Counted from the first letter of the stretch, positions 49,240-64,000 are shown. The stretch is 64,000 nt of DNA from Planctomycetota bacterium (GCA_031409275.1 JANNXA010000030.1:1-64000), one strand, 5' to 3'. Numbers and translations are program-made. The notes: generated by a model from the sequence alone, not told the origin.

Positions 49240-52200
49240 TCACGGCTGCAGCAGGCCGTAGTGGACGAGGTATCGCCACACGAAGTCGTTCAGGATCGGA
49301 TCGCTCGCCATGCTTTGGTAGGTCGGCTCCGCCATGCTGCGGTTCATCTCGACACCGTAGCTGTAGGCGGTCTCGCTCGCCTTCCACTCGAGCAGCAGGT
49401 TGATGATGCTCTGGTTGGCGTAAGCGCTCGTGCTGGGCTCATCGATGTAGTAACCGGGCGGTGCGCAAGAAGGCGGGTTGGGGTTGCCCCCGTCGCCTGC
49501 GAAGACATCGGTGATGTAGTAATCGCCGGTGTCGCGGTTGTGGTCATCGAGGATGCCGCGCCGCGCATAGTGATAGAGGTCGGGAGCGCGCTGGAGCAGG
49601 TTCGTCACGAGCGGGTCGCCGGGCGCGTGGTGATCGCGGTAGTGGATGAAGCGATGGAATGCCTGCGCATTGCCGCGCAGGTCGGTCCACTGCTGTGACA
49701 TGTACCCGTACAGCGCCTTGTCGGACGACTTGCCGGCAGCCCAGGTGATCATGTAGCCGTCGAGATTGGTCGCGCTGCCGACGGGGGTGCCGACCGGCGC
49801 CTGCCAACCGAGCATGCCGGTGTCGACCCCGAAGCCGTTCGGCTGCTTGAACACCACATTCGCCCATTGGTACATGATCGTGCGCAACCACGCCTCGAGC
49901 TCCGCGTTCGGAGCGAGGTCGAGCGCAGCCATCGCGGCGGTGGTGACAGCGCTGTAGGTGCCGAGCACGAAGTTGCCGTACGGCTGCACGTTGGGCGAGA
50001 TGGCGGGCGAGAGGATCGTCTCCGAGAGCGCCTTCGCCGAATCGAGGAGAGGAGTCTCTCCACGGGTGAACGCCCAGTCGGGCACGGCCTGGAAGAAGGT
50101 GTGCTTGCTGCCGTCGTACATGTCGGACTTGCGCGTGACCTGAGCATTCGCGTTGCGGACCTTCTGGCGATCCTCGAGCGCGCCGTCGTCGATGTTCCAA
50201 GCCATCTTGTCGGCTTTGTATTGCGCCTCGAAGAACGAGTGGAGGTAGGAGCCGCCGTGGCCCGTCCGTAGCCAGTGGTAGAAGCGGCGCGTCTCCTCCC
50301 AGTTGTTGTTGGCGCCGCCCGTCTCGCCGGCGAACCGAAAGACGGTTCGAATCGGGTCGGAAGCGTCGGGTTGGGTGGCGCGGATGCCAGCGAGGTTCTG
50401 GTAGGTCTTGAATTGCGCCTCGTCGACCAGCTTCCACGGCCAGACTTGGGACTGGTTGTAGGCGAACAGCGCGGCGCGCGCCGCGAGCGGGTAGTCGAAC
50501 GTCGTCGCGACGGCGATCGGGTCGCTCGCCGGCGCCGACTCGAACGAGAGATAGAAGACCCGTGTCTCGGCGCTGGCGTAGGGCAGTGGATAGGAGTGCG
50601 GGTCAGAGGGGACCTTGCGAGGCAGGAGGCCCACCTCGATCGCGCCATCGCCGACGGCGGCGAGCCCGACCGGCCACGTGCGGCACGCATGCTCGATGCC
50701 GAAGAGGACTCCGCGACCGGACGCGGAAGAGGTGACCTCGAGGAACGACGGATCGGTCAGCTCGTTCTCCGCGGAGAACCAGCCGCTCGCGGCATCGCCG
50801 CAGTATTCGGTGCTGCCGATCCGTTCACGAACGCCCTCGATCGCGAAGAGGTCGACACCGTTGCGCTGGATGAAGCCGAAGTACGCGGTCGAGTTGGAAT
50901 CGGTCTGGAGCCGGTAGTCGCTGCGCGAGACGTAGCCGAGCCGGAACTCGGCGTCCTGACCGCTGCCGATCGCGCCGCCGTTCAGCGTCGTCGAGTCCCC
51001 ACGCAGCGCGGGAGCGGGCATGCGGACGTCGAAGGGCCCCAGTTCGTTGAGCGTCGCCTGGTAGGTGAAACCGCGGAAGAGCAGGTGTTCGGGGAACTGC
51101 AGGCTCGTATCGCGCAACGACGCCGTGACTCGCAGCTCCGATTCGCCCTGGTTGGCCTCGACGTAGAAGCGCACGTAGATGCGGTCGGCGTCGGTCGGCG
51201 ATGCGGTGCGCGTGAAGGAACCGTCGATCTCGACCTCGGCGCGGACCGGCCCGTTGCGGCGCGTGGTCACTTTGCTCTTGTGCCACGTCCACTCGGCATC
51301 GGCCGCGTCCCAGAAGTGCGGGCGATTGCCTGCGGCGGTCGAGAGGAGGTCGAGGCCGCCTGCGCGGATCGACTGGAAGAGATCATCGACGGTGGAGTCG
51401 ATCGTGACCGTCATCGCGCCGGTGTCGATCGTGGTGAGCGTGCCGTCGGTGGACGCGATCCACGCACCGCCAAAACTCCCGGAGCCCTTGTCGACCTGGA
51501 CGGTGTTGTCCGTGGCGCCCGCCGCAAGGCTGGCGAGGTACTCGCACAAGACCCACTTGCAGCTGCCGTCGTCCCACCTGGCGAGCGTCGAGAACTGACC
51601 CGCGGTCGCGCCTCCCGTGAGCGTCAGGTTCGGCACGCCGAAGCCGTTCTCGAACACCTGGCCTGGAGGCAACGGAACGCCGACGCGAACCGGTTGCGCA
51701 ACCACGTCGATCCCGGCGCGGCCCGGCCGCAGCACCTCCTGCGTGGTCAGCGGAATCGGAAAGACGATCGAACTGGATGGCGGAGTGGTCAACGCCTCGT
51801 CGGGATGGCACTCGACCAGGGACGTGAGTCGACCACCGCGCGGCGTCGACAGGTAGCCCTGGATGTAGGTGATTCCGTTCCAGCGGCTGCCGTCGACGAT
51901 GCCTTGGTACGTCGTGCCGCTGACGCTGATGATCTCGCACGAGTTGAGGTCGATGCCGAAGTAGCCCGGCGTCGTGGGATCGGGATGCGTCGCGACGACG
52001 ATTCGGTCGGAGAGGTAGAGCGTGACCTCGGTCGCGTCCGACGGAGCGTTCATGAACTCGACGGTGAACGACTGATCGTCGGCGAACTGATCGATCTCGA
52101 GGTACATCGGCCGCTCGCCATTGACGAACGAGCCCATTGAAACGGTCGACGGCGTGGTGCCGCCGCTGCCGCCCCCTCCCGAACCGCCACCCCCACCGCC

Positions 52201-52311
52201 GCCATCGCCGCAGTCGATGGGCGGCAGGACCCCGGTGGCGAGATCGCCCGCGGAACCACCGCCACCGCACGCGGGGACAAGCAAGGCAAGGAGGAAGAGG
52301 GGCGTCCGCAT
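49240..52311 (-). CDS. Large lipoprotein with poly-Gly linker and PcRGLX/YetA-like (polysaccharide lyase-like) domains
   Basis: LLVPAC lipobox; PVRVGVPLPPG...LARWDDGSCKWVL barrel motif; GPVRA; aromatic-rich helical C-terminus. Confidence 0.65.
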   Translation of the reverse strand: MRTPLFLLALLVPACGGGGSAGDLATGVLPPIDCGDGGGGGGGSGGGGSGGTTPSTVSMGSFVNGERPMYLEIDQFADDQSFTVEFMNAPSDATEVTLYLSDRIVVATHPDPTTPGYFGIDLNSCEIISVSGTTYQGIVDGSRWNGITYIQGYLSTPRGGRLTSLVECHPDEALTTPPSSSIVFPIPLTTQEVLRPGRAGIDVVAQPVRVGVPLPPGQVFENGFGVPNLTLTGGATAGQFSTLARWDDGSCKWVLCEYLASLAAGATDNTVQVDKGSGSFGGAWIASTDGTLTTIDTGAMTVTIDSTVDDLFQSIRAGGLDLLSTAAGNRPHFWDAADAEWTWHKSKVTTRRNGPVRAEVEIDGSFTRTASPTDADRIYVRFYVEANQGESELRVTASLRDTSLQFPEHLLFRGFTYQATLNELGPFDVRMPAPALRGDSTTLNGGAIGSGQDAEFRLGYVSRSDYRLQTDSNSTAYFGFIQRNGVDLFAIEGVRERIGSTEYCGDAASGWFSAENELTDPSFLEVTSSASGRGVLFGIEHACRTWPVGLAAVGDGAIEVGLLPRKVPSDPHSYPLPYASAETRVFYLSFESAPASDPIAVATTFDYPLAARAALFAYNQSQVWPWKLVDEAQFKTYQNLAGIRATQPDASDPIRTVFRFAGETGGANNNWEETRRFYHWLRTGHGGSYLHSFFEAQYKADKMAWNIDDGALEDRQKVRNANAQVTRKSDMYDGSKHTFFQAVPDWAFTRGETPLLDSAKALSETILSPAISPNVQPYGNFVLGTYSAVTTAAMAALDLAPNAELEAWLRTIMYQWANVVFKQPNGFGVDTGMLGWQAPVGTPVGSATNLDGYMITWAAGKSSDKALYGYMSQQWTDLRGNAQAFHRFIHYRDHHAPGDPLVTNLLQRAPDLYHYARRGILDDHNRDTGDYYITDVFAGDGGNPNPPSCAPPGYYIDEPSTSAYANQSIINLLLEWKASETAYSYGVEMNRSMAEPTYQSMASDPILNDFVWRYLVHYGLLQP

Positions 52312-52847: not shown

Positions 52848-54407
52848 TCAATCGACCGTTCGCCAACTGCGGCCATCGCGAGTCAACAACTCGTCCGCCT
52901 CCTTCGGCCCGGCGCTGCCCGCGGCGTAGTTCGGGAAGCTGCGCGGCGGCAGCGATTGCCAGACGTCGAGCATCGGCGCGACCACCTTCCACGCCGCCTC
53001 GACCATGTCGGCACGCTGGAAGAGCGTCGCATCGCCAGCCATCGCGTCGTACAGCAGGCGCTCGTAGCCCGTCGACGGCGTCGAGCCGAAATGGTCGGCG
53101 TACTTGAAGTCCATCTGCACGCTGCCGAGGCGCACGGTCGCGCCCGGCATCTTGGCGCCGAACACCAGCGAGATGCCCTCGTTGGGTTGCACCGTGATGA
53201 TCAGCTGGTTGGGCGTCAGCTTCTCGACCGGCGTATCGCGGAACAGCGTGAATGGCGGCCGCTTGAAGGTGATCGCGATCTCGGTGTAGCGCTTCGCCAT
53301 CGCCTTGCCGACGCGCAAGTAGAACGGCACGTTGGTCCAGCGCCAGTTGTCGATGTTGAGCTTCATCGCCACGTAGGTCTCGGTGCGCGAATCGGGGCGC
53401 ACCTTGGGCGTCGAGCGGTAGGCGGGGATCTTCTTGCTGCCGCTCTGCCCTTCGCCGTATTGGCCGCGCACCGTGCGCGCCAGCACCTCTTCGGGCGACA
53501 TCGGCTGCATCGCGCGCAGCACCTTGGTCTGCTCGTCGCGAACCGCGTCCGCCTCGAAGCTGATCGGCGGCTCCATCGCCACCAGCGAGATCAGCTGGAA
53601 GATGTGGTTCGGGACCATGTCGCGCAGCGCGCCGCTCTTGTCGTAGTAGTCGCCGCGCGTCTCGACGCCGACCGTCTCCGCCACCGTGATCTGGACGTGG
53701 TCGACGTAGCGACGATTCCAGATCGGCTCGAAGATCCCGTTCGCGAAGCGGAACATCATCAGGTTCTGGACCGTCTCTTTCCCGAGGTAGTGATCGATGC
53801 GGTAGATCTGCCGCTCGTCGAGCAGCCGACGCAGCTCCGCGTTCAGCGCGCGCGCCGATTCGTAGTCGCGGCCGAACGGCTTCTCCACGATCACGCGCCG
53901 CCAGCGGCCTTCGGTCTCCTGCGTCAGGCCGGCCGCGGAGAGCTTGGCGACCACCTCGCCGAAGAACTCCGGCGCGGTCGCCATGTAGAAGAGCGCGTTG
54001 CCGCGCGTGTTGCGTTCCTTCTCGACGCGCGCCAGCACCGCCGCCAGCTTCTGGAAGGCGTCGCCCTCGTTGAAGTCGGCCTGGCAGTAGTAGACGCGTT
54101 CCTTGAGCCAGCCCCACTGCTCGGGCGTGAGCTCGCTGGTCGCGAACTCGCGCATGTCCGCTTCGAGCTTGGTGCGGTAGCCCTCGTCGCCGATCGCCTG
54201 GCGGGCGAAGCCGATGACCGCGAAGTCATCGGACAGCAGCCGTTCGCGCACGAGGTTGTAGAGCGCCGGGATGAGCTTGCGCTTGGTGAGGTCGCCGCCG
54301 GCACCGAAGATCACCAGCGCGCATGGCCCGACCGGCTTGCCCGATGCGATCGGTTCCACGGCGTTCGTCCTCGCAGCAGTGCCCAAGGTCCCGATGGGAT
54401 CCGTCAC
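52848..54407 (-). CDS. zwf: Glucose-6-phosphate 1-dehydrogenase
   Basis: [36 protein letters not shown]. Confidence 0.97.
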
Positions 54408-57292
54408 GAGAGCGCCTCCGTCACCGCGTCGGCCAGCTTCTTCAATCCGCTGGCCACATCGCTGCCGAGATGGACGCGCAACGCGCGTCGTCCTCGCTCG
54501 GCCAGCACTTCGAAGTCACCGCGCGCCTGCGCCGCCTTGACGATCCCGAAGCTGTACTTCGCCCCGGGCACCGCCGCGTCGCGCGCATCGTCGCAGGTGA
54601 TCTGCACGAAGACTCCCGAGTTCGGCCCGCCCTTGTAGGCCTGTCCAGTCGAGTGCAGGAAGCGCGGGCCGAAACCCATCACGGTGGCGACGCGCTTCGC
54701 GTTCCTCACCTCGTGGCGCATCCGCTGGATCAGCGACTCGTGGGTCGCGGTCATGTCGACGTAGGCGAGGAAGCCGGCGTAGTCGCCCGGCTGCAGGCGC
54801 GCAACGTGCGCGCGCAGGAGCTTGGCGAGCGTCGCGCCGCCGCCCGCGGCCTGCTGCAGCGCGGCCGCGTTCTTCGCGTCGGCGAAGAGCTTGATGCCAT
54901 CGCCGTTCCAGAAAGGCGTCTCCGCGGGCAGCGCGCCGCTCTGCTCGAACGCCGAGGTGATCTTCTTGGTCGCGATCTTGCTCGCTTCGACGTCCGGCTG
55001 ATCGAACGGATGGATGCCGAGCACCGATCCCGCCACCGCCGTCGCGACTTCGAGCACGAACATCTCGCCGGCGAGGTCGTAGCGGTCCGCGAGCGGGATG
55101 CGGATCACCGGATGGCCCGCCGCCGCCAGCGCGGTCAGCGCTTCGCTCGTGCGTGGGTCGACCTGACCTGGCAGTTCGAAGCTGAGGAAGACCCGGTCGC
55201 TGCCGTACTTCTCGGGACCGCCGAGGCACTCGCGATCGACCGGGATCAGCCCCTTGCCGACCTTGCCGGTCGACTCGGCGACGAGCTGCTCGATCCAGGC
55301 GCCGAAGTCGGCGATGCCCTGCGAAGTGACGACCGTCAGCTTGTCGCGTCCGAACTTCGCCGCGGCGCCGAGGACGAGTCCGAGGTGGACGCCGGGGTTG
55401 TCGCGGATGGACGAAGCCATGCACGCCTGCTTCATCGCCGCGGCGCGCTCGAGCAGCTTGGCGACATCGAGGCCCATCGCCGCCGCCGGAACGAGGCCGA
55501 AGTCGGAGAGCGCCGAGTAGCGGCCGCCCACGCTCTTCACGCCGTGGAAGATGCGGCGGAAGCCGTCGGCCTGCGCGACCTTCTCCATGTTGGAACCGGG
55601 ATCGGTCACCGTGATGAAGCGGCGACCTGCTTCCTTCGCGCCGACGACCTGCTTCACGCGCTCGAAGAACCACGCCTTGAAGATGTTGGGCTCGAGCGTG
55701 CTGCCCGACTTGCTGGAGACGCAGAAGAGCGTGCGCGTCAGGTTGATGCGCCGTTCGGTCGCGTGGAGCTGCGCGGGGTCGGTGGAATCGAGCACGACCA
55801 TCTGCGGCATGCCCGGCTGCGGCCCGAACGTCTCGGCCCACACTTCCGGGCAAAGGCTCGAGCCGCCCATGCCGAGCAGGCAGACGTGGGTGAAGCCCGC
55901 TTCCTTCACGTCCTTCGCGAGGTCGGTGAACTTCGCGAGCTGCTTCCGCTGCTCGTCGACGATCGTCAGCCAGCCGGTCCAGCTCGCCTCGTCGCCGCCG
56001 CTCCAGAGCTTCGCATCGGAAGCCCACAGTCGCGCGACCTTGCCACCCGCGGTCCAGTCGGCCAGCAGCTTGGCGAACTCGCCCTCGATCGCGGCCGGCA
56101 GGCGCACCGAGACCAGCGCGCTGCTGCCGTTGCTCGGCTCGACCGGCGTGCCGCCGTGCTTCGCCACGGCAGCGAGCAGCTTGTCGAACGCGTCCTTGAA
56201 GATCTTCACGCCATCGGCCAGCAGCGCGTCGGTCGCGCTCTTCAACGAGACGCCGCACTTGGCGAGTTCGGCAAGCGTGCGCGTGGCACCCTCGAGATCG
56301 GCGGTGAGCGTCGGCTGCACGACGCCGTGATCCTTGAACGCCTCGTAGGTCGCCGGCGGAATCGTCTCCACCGTCTCGACGCCGATCAGCCCCTCGACGT
56401 AGACGACGTCGCGGTACTTCGGGTTCTTGGTGCTCGTCGAGGCCCACAGCAGGCGCTGCGGCTGCGCGCCCTTCGCCGCCAAGGCAGCCCAGCGCGGCCC
56501 GCTCTTCAATGCGCGGTAGTGCTGATAGGCGAGCTTCGCGTTCGCGATCGCCACCTTGCCCAGCAGCGCTTCGATGCGCGCCTTCTCGGCGGGGGTCGCC
56601 GCCTTCTTCGCCAGCTCTTCGAGCTTGCCGTCGATCAGCGAATCGATGCGGCTGATGAAGAAGCTGGCCACCGACGCGACGCGGCCTGGATCGCCGCCCT
56701 TGGCGACGAACTGCTCGATCCCGGCGAGCCACGCGTCCGCGACCGCTTCGTAGGCGTCGACGCTGAACAGCAGCGTGATGTTGACGTTGATGCCTTCGGC
56801 CAGCAGCTCACGCACGGCCGGAATGCACGGCGGTGTCGCCGGCACCTTGATCATCAGGTTCGCGCGATCGACCGACCTCCACAGGCGACGCGCCTCGGCC
56901 AGCGTGCCGACGCGATCGAATGCGAGTTCGGGTGAGACCTCGAGGCTGACGTAGCCGTCGAGGCGCTTGGTGGCTTCGTACACCGGCTTCAGCAGGTCGC
57001 ATGCGGCCTGGATGTCGGCGATGGCGAGGCGCTCGAAGACCGCTTTCGGATCGCGCGCGCACTCGGCGCCCGCCGCCGCGAGGTCCTTGCTGTAGTCCTT
57101 CGAGCCCGCGATCGCCTTCTCGAAGATCGCCGGGTTGCTGGTCATCCCGCGCAGACCGTCGCTGGCGATCATTCGCGCGAGCGAGCCGTCCTCGAGCATG
57201 CTGCGCTGGATGAAGTCGAGCCACACCGACTGACCGGCCGCGTTCAACTGGGCGAGACGCGCGGACGTCGACGAAGAGGTGGTGGAGTTCAT
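54404..57292 (-). CDS. tal-pgi: Bifunctional transaldolase/phosphoglucose isomerase
   Basis: Transaldolase: [63 protein letters not shown]. Confidence 0.95.
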
Positions 57293-57678
57293 CAAGCGGC
57301 TTCCTTGCTCGGGGCACGGCACGGCGCGCCGGACCGGACGACCCGGCGGCAACCGTTGCGGCAGTATCGGCGGCGATCGGAAAGAACTTCAGGTTCGCCG
57401 CCTCGGCGAGATGTGGCCGGGTCGGATGCCGGCGTCGCGATCGGCGTGTCAGAGGCCACCGATTCCCCCGTAGGTGCCCTGACGAGCCGGGGTGGAAAGC
57501 CCGAAGTGGGCTGGGCGTGGTTCCCGGCAAGTGCAGTCGGCGATGGATCGGAAAACGACCCCATGCTGGGGAACGAGCGAACGAAAACCGCACGGGCCCC
57601 TGCTTTGCCTTCCGCCCTCTGCCGCCGGCCTCGGACAGCGATCGAGCTGCCCGCCGCTGGATCTCGGAGGGAATCACG

Positions 57679-60600
57679 ATGACCGCTGTTCTTTCGCCCC
57701 TGCGGCCGGTTCTTCCCGGACGCCGCTCGCTGCTGCTGCTCTGCCTGATCGCGGCCGCCTGCGCCGGCGATGACGGCAAGGACGGAGTCGACGGCTCCAC
57801 TCCAACGACGCCGCTCAGTCGCGTTCTGACCAAGTGGGAAGACGGGCCGGGCGTGAACCTCGAGATCACCGGGGTCTCCGGCGCGACAGGGCCCTCGAAC
57901 AGCTTCGTTCCGGGCGACCGCATCGCGGTCACCTTCACCGCGAAGCGCAACGACGGCAGCAACTGGGGGCTCGACGAGCTCGACCACGGGCACATCCTCG
58001 TTTCGGGCCCGACCTTCAACTACCAGCCGGTGATCGCCGAGCAGACGGACCTCTTCACGGCATCGATCGACAACGGCGACGGCACCTACACCTACAAGTT
58101 CGCGACAGCGATCCCGTCGACCTATCTCGAGCCGGCCAACGACTCCTCCGCGTTCGGTCCCCTCGACGGCGAGCTGCAGGGCGATCCGCTGCTGGCCGGC
58201 ACCTACACGATCGGCATGTTCGGCCGCTGGGAGTACACGGTCGACGGCGCGACATTCAAGGAGGTCGGGCAGGCGACGCGCGACGTCTTGTTTGGCGGCG
58301 AGACGACCACCACCGCCCGCGAAGTGGTGAAGACCGACAACTGCAACCAGTGCCATGTCGCGCTGCAGGCCCACGACGGCGAGATCCGCAGCGCGCAGCT
58401 CTGCGTGCTTTGCCACACCTCGGGAGCCGAGGACACCAGCGGCAACGGTGTCTCGATCGATTTCCGCGTGATGATCCACAAGCTGCATGACGGCGCCCAC
58501 CTGCCTTCGGTACTCGGTGTGGCAACCAACAGCGACGGCTCGCGCAACTACGCCGCGACCAAGGTCCCCTACGAGATCACCGACGACGAGGGCGAGGTTA
58601 CGGACTTCTCCGACGTCGCCTTCCCGGTCTGGCCGAACCTCAACACGCCGATGCCGCGCGACTTCGGCTATTCGGCCCGGTCGTCGACGGAGAAGACGCT
58701 CGAAGCGACGATGCTCCAGGGCGCGACGCAGTGCTCGAAGTGCCACGGCGATCCCGACGACTCGGGCCTGCTGACCGGTCCGCTGACGGCGCCGGCGCAG
58801 GGCGGCCTCGCCTTCTCGCAGCCCTCTCGACGTGCGTGCGGCAGCTGCCATGACGACATCGACTGGACGCTGCCCTACGTCGCGAACCAGTTGCAGATGG
58901 ATCCGCAAAGCGACGACTCGTCGTGCCTGCCGTGCCACGCGCCGAGCGGCGTTGCGGGCGTCGGCCTGCCTCTCTCGACCGCGGCCGCGCACCTCCATCC
59001 GCTGAACGACGCCACCATCAACCCGGGCGTGAACTTCACCATCACCAGCGTCAGCGGAGCGAGCGGACCGGGCGGGAACTTCGCCAACGGCGACAAGCCG
59101 CGCATCGAGTTCACCGTCACCGACGACGACGACAACGACGTGCCGCTGCAGACGCTCGATGGCACCAGCACGCTGCTGGTCGGCCCAACCGCCAACTACC
59201 AGCACGTCTTCCCGTTTGCGAGCCCCAACGGCGCTTCGAGCGCGCTGCCGGTCGACTTCGCCGGTCGCTTGCAATCGTCGAGCACCACGAACAAGGGGAC
59301 GATGAGCAAGCTCGTCGGCGCCACCGATTCCGAGACGCTCATCGTCCAGTTCACCCCGTCGTCGACGGCGTTCACCGTCACCGGCACCAACAGCGGCTTG
59401 CTCGGCAGCGGAACGCTCGCGGCCGCGACCAGCACCAACTCCGACAGGTCCTCGATCAGCAGCGTGGAGCTCGCGCCCGGCGCCGTGGCTGAGACGATCA
59501 CGGTGCTCTTCACCAACCCGACCGCCAGCAGCACGACGTTCGCGGTCACGGGCTCGGTCAGCGGCGCGATGGGCAGCGGGACGATGCCCGCGTTCATCAA
59601 CGCGTCGACCCTCTTCACCTCGAATGACGGCAAGGTGTCGTTCATCGTCTCGAGCGGCGCGAACGCGTTCGCGTCCAATCAGACGATCCACCTCACGATC
59701 TTCCGCGGTGGCGGCGCCAACCCGGTGCTCTTCGCCATCGTGGTCGGCCGCACTTCGTTCGCGATCAACGACCGCATTTACTACGACACGGTCGCGGATG
59801 ACTCGTCGTACGAGTTCGCGCTGCCGATGGATCTGCCCAACGAATTCCTCGGCGACGGCAACGGCAGCATCGGGCAGGTCCTGACCGCGGCCAACGTGCC
59901 GGTCTACTACGGACGCCAGGTGCTCTCGGAACGCATCGCGCTCGATGCTTCCGGGCCGACGACCCTGATCGCCGCTTCGACCGAGCGCGCCCGCTACGTC
60001 GACGTCGCAGCAATCGACAGCGACCTTGCGAACGGCGACAACGTGGTGATCGACGACGGGATCGCCAGCTTCGAGGAGTACGCGCAGGTCGGCTACATCG
60101 ACAGCGCGAAGAAGCGCCTCTGGTTCCGCACTCCGCTGCGCTTCAGCCATGCCGCGACGACCGGCACCGTGCAGGAGGTGACGCTCAGCTTCCGGCAGGA
60201 GGGCGTGAACTACACGCTCGATCCGGCCACCGGCACCATCACGTCGCTCGCCGCCTTCACCACCGGCAACGCCATCGTGATGAACTACCGCACGGACGGA
60301 GCCTTCGGTTGGTATCGCCGCGCCGGCGACGCGCTGCAGGCGGTCTACGTCCCGCCCATCAACGACTCGCCCGACCTCGACTCGAGCTGGGGCGAATGGT
60401 CGGGGCTGACCTACCTGAGCGGCACCTACAGCGCCTCGATCTGGGGCCGCAAGAACAAGATCCTCGGCCTGCAGAACGAGGTGCAGACCTACAACGGCAT
60501 CGGCGAAGCATCGGTCGCCTCGCTCCTCTACGGCAGCGCGGCCGCTGAAGAGCCGCACGCGCTGGTCTCGAGCGGCGCGAACTGCGAGAGCTGCCACACG

Positions 60601-61107
60601 ATGGTCGGGCCGTTCCACGGCGGCAACCGTCGCGATTTCAACACCTGTGTGCTCTGCCACGGCGTCGCGGGCAACGAGGACTGGCCGATCTACGGCACCA
60701 CCGTCGCGACCGCCGCCACCACCGGCACGACGATCGACTTCCGCGGAATGCTCCACAAGATCCACATGGGCGAGGAGCTGACGAACGCCGCGACCTACGA
60801 GGTCCTCGGCTTCAGCTCGAGCTCGAACAAGTACGGCGAGGTGGTCTTCCCCGCGCAAGCCGGCCACACCATGAACTGCACCAAGTGCCATGGAAGCTCC
60901 AGCAACTGGTACGCGCCGAGCGCCCGCCAACACCCCGCTCAGGCACTGCCGACGCGGGCGTGGCGATCGGCGTGCGGCGCCTGCCATGACTCCGACGCCG
61001 CCGGTGCGCACTTCGACGTCATGACCGCCGGCGGACTGGAATCGTGCGAGGTCTGCCACGGCCAGGGCACTGAGTTCTCGGTCGAAGTCGTGCACAAGGT
61101 TCGGTGA
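57679..61107 (+). CDS. Decaheme c-type cytochrome lipoprotein, MtrC/OmcA-like, with large insertions (1142 aa)
   Basis: RBS GGAGG; lipobox-like LIAAAC; 10 CxxCH in two groups of 5; IDFR..[IL]HK[LI]H in both halves; duplicated beta domain. Confidence 0.92.
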   Translation: MTAVLSPLRPVLPGRRSLLLLCLIAAACAGDDGKDGVDGSTPTTPLSRVLTKWEDGPGVNLEITGVSGATGPSNSFVPGDRIAVTFTAKRNDGSNWGLDELDHGHILVSGPTFNYQPVIAEQTDLFTASIDNGDGTYTYKFATAIPSTYLEPANDSSAFGPLDGELQGDPLLAGTYTIGMFGRWEYTVDGATFKEVGQATRDVLFGGETTTTAREVVKTDNCNQCHVALQAHDGEIRSAQLCVLCHTSGAEDTSGNGVSIDFRVMIHKLHDGAHLPSVLGVATNSDGSRNYAATKVPYEITDDEGEVTDFSDVAFPVWPNLNTPMPRDFGYSARSSTEKTLEATMLQGATQCSKCHGDPDDSGLLTGPLTAPAQGGLAFSQPSRRACGSCHDDIDWTLPYVANQLQMDPQSDDSSCLPCHAPSGVAGVGLPLSTAAAHLHPLNDATINPGVNFTITSVSGASGPGGNFANGDKPRIEFTVTDDDDNDVPLQTLDGTSTLLVGPTANYQHVFPFASPNGASSALPVDFAGRLQSSSTTNKGTMSKLVGATDSETLIVQFTPSSTAFTVTGTNSGLLGSGTLAAATSTNSDRSSISSVELAPGAVAETITVLFTNPTASSTTFAVTGSVSGAMGSGTMPAFINASTLFTSNDGKVSFIVSSGANAFASNQTIHLTIFRGGGANPVLFAIVVGRTSFAINDRIYYDTVADDSSYEFALPMDLPNEFLGDGNGSIGQVLTAANVPVYYGRQVLSERIALDASGPTTLIAASTERARYVDVAAIDSDLANGDNVVIDDGIASFEEYAQVGYIDSAKKRLWFRTPLRFSHAATTGTVQEVTLSFRQEGVNYTLDPATGTITSLAAFTTGNAIVMNYRTDGAFGWYRRAGDALQAVYVPPINDSPDLDSSWGEWSGLTYLSGTYSASIWGRKNKILGLQNEVQTYNGIGEASVASLLYGSAAAEEPHALVSSGANCESCHTMVGPFHGGNRRDFNTCVLCHGVAGNEDWPIYGTTVATAATTGTTIDFRGMLHKIHMGEELTNAATYEVLGFSSSSNKYGEVVFPAQAGHTMNCTKCHGSSSNWYAPSARQHPAQALPTRAWRSACGACHDSDAAGAHFDVMTAGGLESCEVCHGQGTEFSVEVVHKVR

Positions 61108-61169
61108 TGCGCACGCTCGCTTCGAGAGCACCGAGGCCACGGGAGATCGCTGCGATGGAGGCAACCGCG

Positions 61170-62579
61170 ATGACACTTCAGCGGTCCGCCCGCTCGATGC
61201 TGCTGCTGGCAACTGCCGCTCTGCCCGGTCGTGCCGTCGCGCAGGACGTCGGCACGACGCCCGCCGAGACACCCGCGGCGCCCGAAACCGCGGCCGCGCA
61301 AGAGACCGCGGTCGCGCTCCCTTCGCTCGCGCAGGGAGACGACGCACTCGACCTTTCGGGCTGGTTCTCGCTGCAGTACCGCTTGCGACGGACCAGCAGC
61401 ACCACCGACCAGGACCTCTTCGGACTGCTCGGTGCCGACTGGCGTGACGCCGAGCGCGATCCCCTCTCGCTCCACCTCGTGACGCGCAGCTCGTGGGACG
61501 TCGACGGTCGCCAGGACCGCAATGGCGGCTACGCCTTCGACAGCCTCGCCGACAGCTACGACCACGCCTTCGTCGCCCACCTCCTCGAAGGCTGGGCGGG
61601 CGGCCGCGTCGGCTCGATCGGCGATTGGCGCGCGGGCCGCTTCTATCTCGAGGACACGCCGGTCACGACCTACATGGACGGCGCTCGCCTGGCGACAGCG
61701 GCCGCGGGCCCGCTCAAGGCGCGCATCGGCGGCTACGGCGGCCTGCCGACGCATCTCTACGAATCGTCGGCGCGCGACGACCGCATCTACGGCGCCTTCG
61801 CCGAAGCGCGCGGATGGACCAAAGGACGCACGCGCTTCGACTGGATGCACGTCGACGACGAGCTGCGCGCGAGCGACCGCGAGGATGACCTGCTCGCGCT
61901 GTCGCAATGGCAGCAGCTCGGAGAACAGGTCGACCTGTTCGGGCGCTTCACCTGGATCGCCTCCGAAAGTCGCGACCTCACTCTGCGCGCCGGCTACCGC
62001 GACGTCCCCACGGCGCTGCGCGTGCAGCTCGCCTGGTACGAGCTCTTCCATGAGCAGACCGACCTCTCCTACGAGTTCGACCCCTTCTCGGTCGTCGCGT
62101 TCGACTATCTGCCGTACCGACAGGCGTCGCTGGTGATCGGCAAGGGGCTCGGTGACCACTTCGACCTCGCTGCCGGCGTCGACGTGCGACGGCTCAACGA
62201 CGGCGACCTCGAGCGCGCGTTCAACCACGAGTTCGAGCGCTACTACGTCGTCCCCTCGGTCACCGGCTGGCCCAGCGAAGGCACTTCCGCCTCGGCCACC
62301 TTCGAGCTGTGGGACGCCGACACGGAGCGCTACCGGACCATCGGAGCCGACCTCGACCAGGAGATCGCGAAAGGGCTCTCCGTCGGCGCGTTCACCTCGT
62401 TCTCGCTCTACCGCTACGACCTCTACCAGGCGCGGGAGCTCGACCGCGTGCGGAGCTGGGGCACCCGCCTCGATTGGCACGCGACCAGCCGCCTGCGACT
62501 GCGTCTCGACTGGACGTTCGAGGACGATCGCTTCGACCGCTACCAGACTGCGAGGGTGCGAGCCACATGGAACTTCTGA
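61170..62579 (+). CDS. Outer-membrane beta-barrel porin of a porin-cytochrome complex (469 aa)
   Basis: RBS GGAGG; signal peptide; amphipathic strands (AGRF, DGAR); C-terminal ATWNF; lies between two multiheme genes. Confidence 0.85.
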   Translation: MTLQRSARSMLLLATAALPGRAVAQDVGTTPAETPAAPETAAAQETAVALPSLAQGDDALDLSGWFSLQYRLRRTSSTTDQDLFGLLGADWRDAERDPLSLHLVTRSSWDVDGRQDRNGGYAFDSLADSYDHAFVAHLLEGWAGGRVGSIGDWRAGRFYLEDTPVTTYMDGARLATAAAGPLKARIGGYGGLPTHLYESSARDDRIYGAFAEARGWTKGRTRFDWMHVDDELRASDREDDLLALSQWQQLGEQVDLFGRFTWIASESRDLTLRAGYRDVPTALRVQLAWYELFHEQTDLSYEFDPFSVVAFDYLPYRQASLVIGKGLGDHFDLAAGVDVRRLNDGDLERAFNHEFERYYVVPSVTGWPSEGTSASATFELWDADTERYRTIGADLDQEIAKGLSVGAFTSFSLYRYDLYQARELDRVRSWGTRLDWHATSRLRLRLDWTFEDDRFDRYQTARVRATWNF

Positions 62580-63595
62580 AACCGATCACGCGCGGCGCGC
62601 TGCTGCTGGTCCCGATCGGGATCGTCGGCTGCCTGATGTTCAACGGATTCGGCGGCCCCTCCGGCCCCGCGTTCCCCCATTCCAAGCACGGCGAGGAAGC
62701 GGGGCTCGAGTGCGCCTCGTGCCACCGCACCGCCGCCACCGGCGAAGCGGCGGGCATGCCGACCGAGAAGCAGTGCATGCTCTGCCACGAGGAGCTCGAC
62801 CGGGACAAGCCGCTGGAGAAGCGGGCGAGCGCCTTCTTCGTCGACCATGTGCTGCAGGCGCGGCGCGGAAGCGAACTCGGCGACGAGGTGATCTTCTCGC
62901 ACGCTGCGCACGTGACCGGCAAGTCGATGGCGTGCGCCCAATGCCACTCCGGCGTCGAAGGGTCGGACGAACTGCCCGCCGATCTGCATCTCGCGATGAT
63001 CGACTGCATGGGTTGCCACTCGCAGGCAAGCCTCAGCAACGATTGCGCGGTCTGCCACAAGACGATCCGCGCCGAAGTGCCCCCGCCCACCCACATCGGA
63101 GCGTGGAAGCGCGAGCACGGCCCGACCTGCCGCGCCGGCGGTGTCGGCGTCGGCAGCGACGGCGATGCAGAGGCCACCTGCATGTACTGCCACGGTCGCA
63201 ACGAATGCGAGTCGTGCCACCGCACCGAAGCGCCCGCCGACCACAACAACTGGTGGCGTCGCCGCGGCCACGGCCTCGCGATGGCGATCGACCGCGACCG
63301 CTGCAGCACCTGCCACCAGGCTGACTCGTGCGACCGCTGCCACCAGGAGAGCGCGCCCGTCAGCCACACCGCCGGTTTCGGTTCGCCGCGCGACCGCCAC
63401 TGCGTCGGCTGCCACTTCCCGCTCGGCAACGACGAAGGGTGCGCGACCTGCCACCGCGGCACGCCGAGCCACCAGCTCGCTGCTCCGCTGCCGCCTGGCC
63501 ACACTCCCGGCATGAACTGCCGCCAGTGCCACGGGCTCACCGCGCCGCTCCCGCATCCCGACAAGGGCGACAACTGCAGCACCTGCCACCGTTGA
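62567..63595 (+). CDS. 13-heme c-type cytochrome (342 aa)
   Basis: 13 CxxCH counted; N-terminal hydrophobic leader ending IVGC; start overlaps the porin end. Confidence 0.92.
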   Translation: MELLKPITRGALLLVPIGIVGCLMFNGFGGPSGPAFPHSKHGEEAGLECASCHRTAATGEAAGMPTEKQCMLCHEELDRDKPLEKRASAFFVDHVLQARRGSELGDEVIFSHAAHVTGKSMACAQCHSGVEGSDELPADLHLAMIDCMGCHSQASLSNDCAVCHKTIRAEVPPPTHIGAWKREHGPTCRAGGVGVGSDGDAEATCMYCHGRNECESCHRTEAPADHNNWWRRRGHGLAMAIDRDRCSTCHQADSCDRCHQESAPVSHTAGFGSPRDRHCVGCHFPLGNDEGCATCHRGTPSHQLAAPLPPGHTPGMNCRQCHGLTAPLPHPDKGDNCSTCHR

Positions 63596-63606
63596 GGAGT
63601 CGACCG

Positions 63607-64000
63607 TTGAAGTGGTGCGGGCCGCCGGTGTTGCCGTTGCTGCTGGGCGTCGTCGCCGTCGGCGGCGCGTTCGGGGTGACGACGGCACTGCGGAGCGGCG
63701 ACCGTGCACAGCTCGATCGTTCCGCGCGCGATCCCGCCACGAACGTCGCGATCGCCGACGATGCGCAATGGGAGGCGGCGCGGCGTGAGCTGCTCGCGCC
63801 ACCGGCTCATGCGGGAGCGGCGGCCCCCGCCCGCGAACCGTCGCCCGAGACGCTCGAATCGTTCGCGGACGTGGCGCGCGCGCGACTGGTCGCGAAGGCG
63901 CCACTGGCCGAGAAGGCGGCATGGCTGCTCAAGGCGCGCGCGGTCTCACCGACGCTCTACGACGAGCTCTGCGCGATGGTCCTGGCGGGCGGCGAGCAGG
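63607..64000 (+). CDS. Partial hypothetical membrane-anchored protein (runs off the window)
   Basis: RBS GAGGAG, TTG start, MKWCGPPVLPLLLGVVAVGGAFGV; frame open to the end of the window. Confidence 0.65.
   Translation, partial: MKWCGPPVLPLLLGVVAVGGAFGVTTALRSGDRAQLDRSARDPATNVAIADDAQWEAARRELLAPPAHAGAAAPAREPSPETLESFADVARARLVAKAPLAEKAAWLLKARAVSPTLYDELCAMVLAGGEQ

Follow-up and report, generated by a model that had tools for sequence, protein, structure and literature searches.

The DNA considered here is a stretch of 64,000 nucleotides (nt) from Planctomycetota bacterium (GCA_031409275.1 JANNXA010000030.1:1-64000), termed the window. It corresponds to bases 1-64,000 of a contig of 75,506 bases, in a genome of 5.59 Mb that is 92.9% complete. 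Close to its end, four genes lie head to tail on the plus strand, and three of these probably encode a porin-cytochrome conduit, which would carry electrons across the outer membrane. Gene 1 (57679-61107) encodes a decaheme lipoprotein of the OmcA/MtrC family, 1142 amino acids (aa) in length, with two groups of five CxxCH heme motifs and an enlarged domain III. Gene 2 (61170-62579, or from an alternative GTG start at 61104) encodes a predicted beta-barrel of 469 aa (491 aa from GTG) that ends in Phe. Gene 3 (62567-63595) encodes a 342-aa lipoprotein cytochrome with 13 hemes. Gene 4 begins at 63607 and continues to contig position 64338, with 63607-64000 inside the window; its 243-aa product has one N-terminal hydrophobic helix. 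Together, genes 1 and 3 display 23 CxxCH motifs.

Gene 3 starts within gene 2, with an overlap of 13 nt, and gene 4 begins 11 nt past gene 3. Both flanking genes point the other way, the upstream neighbour being divergent and the downstream gene, on the opposite strand, convergent, and thus genes 1-4 form a compact co-oriented unit. An earlier account based on the sequence alone, referred to here as the sequence-only reading, had described such an operon with a 5+5 heme lipoprotein, a barrel ending in Phe, a cytochrome with 13 CxxCH, 23 motifs overall and a fourth, membrane-anchored gene; all of these features are present where it had placed them. The reading frames of the cluster are intact and have a strong third-position guanine-plus-cytosine (GC) bias. 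The GC content of the cluster, 0.67-0.70, is the same as that of the remaining window, and with no such compositional anomaly a recent horizontal transfer was rejected. A scan for promoters and terminators gave zero promoter-like sites and terminator-like sites at chance level, a type of scan that is uninformative for this phylum.

Judged by profile searches, gene 1 is a true member of the OmcA/MtrC family. When scored with the NCBIfam OmcA/MtrC model TIGR03507, a check proposed by the sequence-only reading, it reaches 247.9 bits (248.1 bits in the genome search) against a cut-off of 209.3. The MtrC/MtrF pentaheme domain PF22113 matches in two stretches (E value 8.6e-44), and the CxxCH motifs, at residues 222, 242, 352, 387 and 416 and at residues 969, 990, 1067, 1099 and 1123, form two sets of five. 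A lipobox can be read at the end of the N-terminal hydrophobic stretch, which terminates in ...IAAAC at Cys28. Outside of the CxxCH motifs, the only cysteines are Cys22 and Cys28, and the mature protein has no further Cys. Among solved chains, the sequence matches that of MtrF (3pmq) alone, with an E value of 5.5e-9.

Gene 1 had also been described as much longer than MtrC, and the additional length is found in domain III. TIGR03507 positions 75-388 align to gene 1 residues 121-520, and positions 457-672 to about residues 933-1139. Approximately 70 model positions (388-457) therefore face ∼413 gene 1 residues (520-933), which makes domain III ∼340 residues longer than in the family model. Part of this extra length is explained by tandem duplication of a unit of ∼50 residues: residues 533-580 and 584-636 align as a repeat with a score of 81, compared with a mean of 38 and a standard deviation of 6.2 in 200 shuffles. 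An atlas search with residues 505-950 gave no usable match. All 14 complete gene 1 homologues from related loci have exactly 10 CxxCH motifs. The spacing between the fifth and sixth of these is 355-376 residues in 12 of the 14, and spacings of 544-553 residues are found only in the window and in one related locus, L011.

The product of gene 2 has a cleavable signal peptide, no Cys, and a C-terminus that reads ...ATWNF; the terminal Phe is kept in at least 90% of 87 aligned homologues. Its N-terminus has a stretch rich in Pro, Ala and Thr, and residues 1-58 are disordered in the AlphaFold2 model. The barrel postulated for the middle gene is borne out by this model (15 sequences), which predicts a closed beta-barrel with a mean predicted local distance difference test score (pLDDT) of 78 and a predicted template modelling score of 0.71. 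DSSP assigns 24 strand segments to the span of residues 62-468, including two with a length of just 5 residues, and a plug domain is absent from the model. Fold comparisons by Foldseek and by an independent aligner match outer-membrane barrels of many kinds. These include the 18-strand Occ/AlgE channels, and TonB-dependent receptors and usher pores with Z scores of ∼17; MtrB (6r2q_B) has a Z score of 13.9 and is ranked 26.

At the sequence level, gene 2 has no match in Pfam or NCBIfam at E≤1. The MtrB_PioB model PF11854 matches neither gene 2 (E≤1) nor anything in the 92.9%-complete genome (E≤0.001), in agreement with the proposal that this porin departs from MtrB. A profile made from the 87 homologues likewise found no match by sequence among solved chains. 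The family itself is large. A word-indexed search found only 15 relatives. When 1.84 billion cluster representatives were searched with the full profile, 902 matched at E≤0.001 and 483 at E≤1e-30, counted as representatives at 50% identity. In the atlas, the nearest clusters comprise unnamed proteins about 470 aa long, which come from Nitrospirota, Planctomycetota and Acidobacteriota and serve as leads only. Gene 2 is thus predicted to encode a large outer-membrane barrel of about 22-24 strands, belonging to an unnamed but large family.

Gene 3 has 13 CxxCH motifs in 342 aa, or one heme per 24.6 aa, and these are unevenly distributed. Residues 23-200 have five hemes (35.6 aa per heme) and residues 201-342 have eight (17.8 aa per heme). 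All 13 CxxCH motifs and 12 further His residues are invariant in 69 homologues, with 2 more His present in at least 90% of them, which fits thirteen bis-His electron-transfer hemes. The motifs are not due to chance, since all 13 are invariant in the gene 3 homologues and the full 10 are present in each of the 14 gene 1 homologues. The lipobox residue Cys22 is likewise invariant in all 69 aligned sequences. From its sequence, gene 3 is a lipoprotein and lipid-anchored, a point that the sequence-only reading had missed. At least 680 relatives are found at 90% clustering; many of these are named "cytochrome c3 family protein" and come from metagenome-assembled genomes (MAGs) of Planctomycetota.

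The N-terminal part of gene 3 resembles ActA of Alternative Complex III. Over residues ∼32-210 the family profile matches four solved ActA chains, 8k9e (1.6e-26), 6f0k, 6lod and 6btm, with E values of 1.6e-26 to 3.3e-22, and Foldseek with the gene 3 model finds only ActA chains, the same four (E 1.4e-6 to 1.4e-4). Model confidence in this head region is pLDDT ∼90. The QrcA model NF041781 gives 61.9 bits, which is below its cut-off. The inner cytochrome had been said to be unlike MtrA/DmsE, and this holds: TIGR03508 (DmsE/MtrA) has no match in gene 3 at E≤1, although the same model does match another protein of the genome, and the profile search of solved chains returned no MtrA chain at E≤1. 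With 13 hemes rather than ten and no TIGR03508 match, an identity as MtrA/DmsE was rejected. Identity as the ActA of a full Alternative Complex III was also rejected; the domain is present, but the other genes of that complex (ActB-F) are not in the cluster. Elsewhere in the same genome, C16:120512-121042 encodes a five-heme protein of 177 aa, whose match to the gene 3 profile covers positions 10-172 (E 6.2e-33) and whose score with the QrcA model, 107.5 bits, is below the cut-off of 180. This protein may be a free-standing ActA/QrcA-type relative of the gene 3 head domain.

Relatives of the barrel were sought by a scan of one genome per species, with a single peptide pattern taken from Planctomycetota sequences, and 25 related loci were obtained. 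By their titles, 22 are from Planctomycetota or a class thereof, one is from Coatesbacteria and two are designated simply "bacterium"; this taxonomic spread is biased because the search pattern was drawn from Planctomycetota. The nearest locus, from a Planctomycetota bacterium MAG, shows 81-84% aa identity in the barrel, the 13-heme cytochrome and the part of gene 1 that is retained. These titles and the nearest relative uphold the assignment of the window to a probable planctomycete. A gene 3 homologue follows the barrel on the same strand in 25/25 loci. A gene 1 homologue is present in 16, and its position varies: it is found after the cytochrome in 14 loci, ahead of the barrel in L006, and on the opposite strand, upstream, in L021. 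The order outer cytochrome-porin-cytochrome emphasized by the sequence-only reading is therefore real in the window, and in L006, but is a minority order, as 14 of the 16 loci have barrel-cytochrome-MtrC.

The distribution across the phylum, which had been suggested as a check, was surveyed in an even sample of 401 Planctomycetota genomes (244 of high quality; 288 genera). The barrel profile matches 84 of the 401 genomes, 57 of the 244 high-quality genomes, and 65 of the 288 genera; the 13-heme cytochrome profile matches 81 genomes. In 80 of these 81, the cytochrome gene is situated −9 to 857 nt downstream of the barrel gene on the same strand, and in the exception the two are on different contigs. 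No genome has the cytochrome without the barrel, and the three with a barrel and no cytochrome all have weak or truncated matches. The OmcA/MtrC model matches 44 of the 401 genomes, 40 of them above the cut-off. Thirty-six genomes have both an OmcA/MtrC match and the barrel, and the two are within 5 kb of each other in 28 of these and within 10 kb in 31.

Loci that have no MtrC-like gene often have a cytochrome of ∼700 aa and 8 hemes after the pair (6 loci), perhaps an alternative outer cytochrome. The neighbourhood also repeatedly contains a tetraheme c554-like cytochrome (9 loci), sigma-54 two-component regulators (5-7 loci), and a family of 9-14-heme proteins (10 loci), of which the two members scanned have a NapC/NirT-like N-terminus. 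Judged from these gene neighbourhoods, the barrel-cytochrome pair appears to be the conserved core and the outer cytochrome an exchangeable add-on. Some loci show further variation. At G256:C2:576178-581640, a single 2047-aa frame with two OmcA/MtrC-type units adjoins a barrel pair, and another genome, G320, has four separate barrel-cytochrome pairs on four contigs. A locus of low GC content labelled Brocadiia (L029:2757-7788; GC 0.41) has a barrel and a 13-heme lipoprotein, after which comes a lipoprotein of 805 aa with numerous CxxCH motifs; the latter is not a gene 1 homologue and looks like an alternative outer cytochrome.

Similar pairs of genes have been reported from anammox bacteria. 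The "Pcc" clusters were found by BLAST with OmbB/OmaB of Geobacter as queries (Shi, Fredrickson and Zachara, 2014; PMC4245776). As described in that work, those of Ca. Kuenenia stuttgartiensis and Anaeromyxobacter consist of two genes, one for a porin-like protein and the other for a periplasmic cytochrome that has 338-344 aa and 12-14 hemes, and its authors propose that the two-gene Pcc spans the outer membrane without an outer cytochrome (PMC4245776). The window closely resembles this arrangement, with a 469-aa barrel adjoining, by way of the 13-nt overlap, a 342-aa cytochrome of 13 hemes. It differs in having an OmcA/MtrC-family outer cytochrome, which is absent from the published Kuenenia and Anaeromyxobacter clusters, and in that its inner cytochrome is a lipoprotein. 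The OmbB-OmaB-OmcB system of Geobacter sulfurreducens is more distant, and its link to the window is through the BLAST-based grouping in the same article (PMC4245776).

Fifteen genomes of family f34 match both the barrel and the cytochrome profiles. The barrel E values are 1e-80 to 1e-89 in 14 of these, with one partial match of 3.6e-28, and the cytochrome E values of all 15 are 1e-62 to 1e-72. All five f34 genomes tested have the hydrazine synthase alpha domain (HZS_alpha), although the control was also positive in one unrelated genome. In three f34 loci, a barrel of 468-559 aa ending in Phe is followed by a lipoprotein of 338-343 aa with 13-14 CxxCH, and there is no other multiheme gene within 12 kb of the pair. 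Because genomes that bear hydrazine synthase carry the homologous pair, genes 2 and 3 are members of the family reported from anammox bacteria. By homology they are of the same family as the anammox Pcc pair, with kuste4024/4025 matched by published description only. A search with the cytochrome of the low-GC locus labelled Brocadiia returned 25 proteins, none of them named as anammox. Shaw et al. report expression of the Brocadia orthologue of the Pcc pair in the course of electrode-dependent ammonium oxidation (bioRxiv 10.1101/855817; PMC7188810).

The resemblance to MtrCAB of Shewanella (6R2Q) is in the three-part logic and in gene 1, which belongs to the MtrC/OmcA family and has two PF22113 pentaheme domains and a lipobox; gene 3 is also about as long as MtrA. 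The differences are in the other parts and in the gene order. The window barrel does not match MtrB_PioB and has a predicted 22-24 strands, the strand number of MtrB being 26. The inner cytochrome has 13 hemes, a lipid anchor and an ActA-like N-terminus, with no DmsE/MtrA match, and domain III of gene 1 is ∼340 residues longer than the family model and is without a Cys pair. Gene 3 resembles ActA of Alternative Complex III, and weakly QrcA of the Qrc menaquinone reductase, over its first five hemes (residues ∼32-210). It differs from both in having eight extra hemes and no adjacent ActB-F or QrcB-D, and in its constant pairing with an outer-membrane barrel.

Other porin and multiheme cytochrome clusters, for which electron transfer across the outer membrane has been proposed or shown, are MtoAB/PioAB, PCC3 and PCC4. 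MtoAB/PioAB differ from the window in belonging to the MtrAB family. PCC3 is described as having cytochromes with medians of 21 and 34 hemes together with a five-helix inner-membrane protein, and PCC4 as having three cytochromes in the periplasm but none on the outside (He et al., 2017; PMC5566968). PCC3, PCC4 and the ptd operon were each rejected as the identity of the window cluster, as their composition differs. In the survey of Baker et al. (2022; PMC8805035), mtrC, mtrA and mtrB were required together; three phyla are reported, and the term "Planctomycet" is absent from its main text. An mtrC gene is noted in a single Planctomycetota MAG in PMC10367259, and unnamed multiheme clusters are noted in Planctomycetota in bioRxiv 10.1101/2022.03.26.485925. 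The rows on OFTM77 in the supplement of PMC10732223 list nitrate reductase only. Full-text searches turned up no description of the three-gene module or of an ActA-like origin of its inner cytochrome, though one may exist in subscription journals or supplements.

The sequence-only reading had proposed a distinct system for extracellular electron transfer (EET), with metal oxides, humics or other species as putative partners. The departures from MtrCAB are real, but the barrel-cytochrome pair has already been published as the Kuenenia Pcc. Accordingly, the cluster is probably a Pcc-type pair joined to an unusually long cytochrome of the OmcA/MtrC family, and no new kind of system. What appears to be new is the scale of the family, which is present in about a fifth of the sampled species and has a barrel covered by no curated model. 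Two features of the inner cytochrome, its lipid anchor and its ActA-like head, also appear to be new, as does the combination of Mtr-type with Pcc-type parts.

That genes 1-3 specify an outer-membrane conduit, whether electrons move outward, inward or in both directions, seems likely. That they assemble as a porin-cytochrome conduit in which periplasmic electrons cross the outer membrane to reach acceptors outside the cell stands at about even chances. In this proposed scheme, gene 3 is lipid-anchored through its invariant lipobox Cys, and its five-heme ActA-like head would be in the periplasm and receive electrons from periplasmic or inner-membrane cytochromes. The heme-dense C-terminal part, with eight hemes in 142 residues, may thread the barrel much as MtrA threads MtrB, and would pass electrons at the surface to the MtrC-type lipoprotein. 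From there, the two pentaheme domains of gene 1 could reduce acceptors that are insoluble or colloidal, for example Fe(III) and Mn(IV) oxides or humic matter, and the enlarged domain III may extend reach or binding.

Several lines of evidence point to a conduit. Gene 1 passes the OmcA/MtrC model and has both the 5+5 hemes and the lipobox, and the model of gene 2 is a large, closed barrel whose last residue is Phe. The barrel and the inner cytochrome are tightly coupled (25/25 loci; 80/81 genomes), and an outer cytochrome is frequently close by, as an OmcA/MtrC match within 5 kb of the barrel (28/36 genomes) or as a gene 1 homologue (16/25 loci). The heme density and invariant His residues of gene 3 fit bis-His electron transfer, and related loci add other electron-transfer genes. 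The homologous pair in hydrazine-synthase-bearing genomes, with the Brocadia orthologue expressed in electrode-dependent ammonium oxidation, argues for the same interpretation. In addition, DNA of the stretch is present in freshwater-sediment metagenome runs of one study, two of which are possibly its source; runs that contain a small share of it, from drinking water and sediment, are left out of account.

Other observations weigh against the conduit. A domain III disulfide is impossible in gene 1, as there is no Cys beyond the CxxCH motifs and the signal peptide; the domain III Cys pair is conserved in the Shewanella clade of MtrC/OmcA. Fold searches with gene 2 give generic barrel matches and do not single out MtrB, and a barrel of 22-24 strands may be too narrow for a heme chain. 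The C-terminal half of the gene 3 model has a pLDDT of only ∼45-65, as expected of a chain that folds around hemes omitted by the predictor. Gene 3 could also be anchored in the inner membrane and face the periplasm only, since its head resembles ActA, which belongs to an inner-membrane complex. For Planctomycetota, neither the sorting of lipoproteins nor their exposure at the surface is predictable, and sequence does not show which way the electrons flow. There is no quinol dehydrogenase in the cluster, and NapC/NirT (PF03264) was not found in the 92.9%-complete genome. Finally, a search of sequencing runs found no RNA run that contains the stretch, which is no evidence either way.

One alternative retains the conduit and has it run inward, or both ways, with electrons from Fe(II), Mn(II), reduced humics, a cathode-like mineral or a partner cell delivered to periplasmic carriers, as in MtoAB/PioAB. 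All of the evidence for a conduit that crosses the outer membrane applies equally to inward flow, bis-His multiheme chains are reversible in principle, and the genome is rich in other multiheme cytochromes of unassigned role. One of these is a large protein with class-I c-type cytochrome domains and FixO/CcoO-like (cbb3-oxidase) matches below cut-offs. Known oxidizing conduits, however, usually lack an MtrC-type outer cytochrome (bioRxiv 10.1101/2022.03.26.485925; PMC4245776), whereas the window has one, and inward flow is considered unlikely.

A somewhat less probable alternative does away with the wire. Gene 2 would be a solute channel and both cytochromes would be lipoproteins facing the periplasm, where they would carry out redox reactions on a soluble substrate that enters via the barrel, such as a chelated metal, a sulfur or selenium species, or a quinone-like organic compound. 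The homology of the gene 3 head to ActA and QrcA, which act at the periplasmic face of the inner membrane, is in keeping with this, as are the best fold matches of the barrel, which include substrate channels and TonB-dependent receptors, and a lipoprotein topology that sequence does not fix. Yet the gene 2 model has no plug domain, and a barrel that is strictly paired with a heme-dense cytochrome of MtrA-like length (80/81 genomes) is the signature of a porin-cytochrome complex. OmcA/MtrC-family proteins of known localization are surface proteins, which also counts against this alternative. That the genes are mere neighbours with no shared function, or a decaying remnant, is very improbable. 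The lack of RNA runs noted above does not bear on it in either direction, and against it stand the intact frames with strong third-position GC bias, the overlapping or tight junctions, the invariant heme motifs, and the synteny kept across 65 of the 288 sampled genera.

With a conduit as the preferred interpretation, a broader proposal can be made, which is tentative and falls somewhat short of even chances. About a fifth of Planctomycetota species would carry a conduit whose wire arose from ActA and not from MtrA, through the addition of eight tightly packed hemes and a lipid anchor, and which threads a barrel of an unnamed family. In about four in ten barrel-bearing genomes (36/84), an outer cytochrome of the MtrC/OmcA family would also have been recruited. 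Mtr and Pcc systems are thought to have evolved independently; the proposal would have them exchange modules, and would make extracellular respiration a common but unrecognized trait of sediment Planctomycetota other than the anammox bacteria. Both the origin proposed for the inner cytochrome, from an ActA-like protein, and the combination of Pcc and Mtr parts bear on the evolution of conduits by module exchange.

Sediments, soils and waters harbour abundant Planctomycetota, but these rarely figure among the bacteria regarded as respiring metals or humics. The presence of the pair in 84 of 401 sampled species genomes, often near an MtrC-type cytochrome, provides a testable EET candidate for the phylum, and ties the anammox Pcc to a much larger family. 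Surveys that demand mtrA and mtrB beside mtrC, as the main text of Baker et al. (2022) describes, would miss clusters of this type. As no Pfam or NCBIfam model covers the barrel, the alignment of its homologues could seed a new one.

Gene 4 had been included in the operon by the sequence-only reading, but a place in a conserved module is not sustained. By tblastn it is found in only one of the 25 related loci, the nearest relative L006, with 49% identity. Pfam gives one match below cut-off for each form of the gene, DUF7262 (E 0.12) and Vitellogenin_N (E 0.0075), and NCBIfam has no match to the part in the window. From its distribution, gene 4 is probably incidental and not a core part.

The genome has numerous other multiheme cytochromes, with 20 frames that have third-position GC bias and at least three CxxCH motifs. 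Among them are frames with 23 (C28:26864-29176), 16 (C33:136206-137528) and 11 motifs, and several with 8-10; the latter show only sub-threshold family matches, e.g., ExtM-like. A second, distant porin-cytochrome-like pair is present at C20:32181-34929. It consists of a 528-aa frame that ends in ...RLRF and matches the barrel profile weakly (E 7.2e-6), directly followed by a 440-aa frame with 13 CxxCH; neither protein matches the curated families.

On the minus strand of the window at 52848-57352, the divergent upstream frame of 982 aa resembles, by eye from its translation, a transaldolase-glucose-6-phosphate isomerase fusion, and the next frame, of 519 aa, by the same means resembles glucose-6-phosphate dehydrogenase. 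Another minus-strand frame, at 49240-52311, encodes 1023 aa; its N-terminus looks like that of a lipoprotein, and it includes a long run of glycine.

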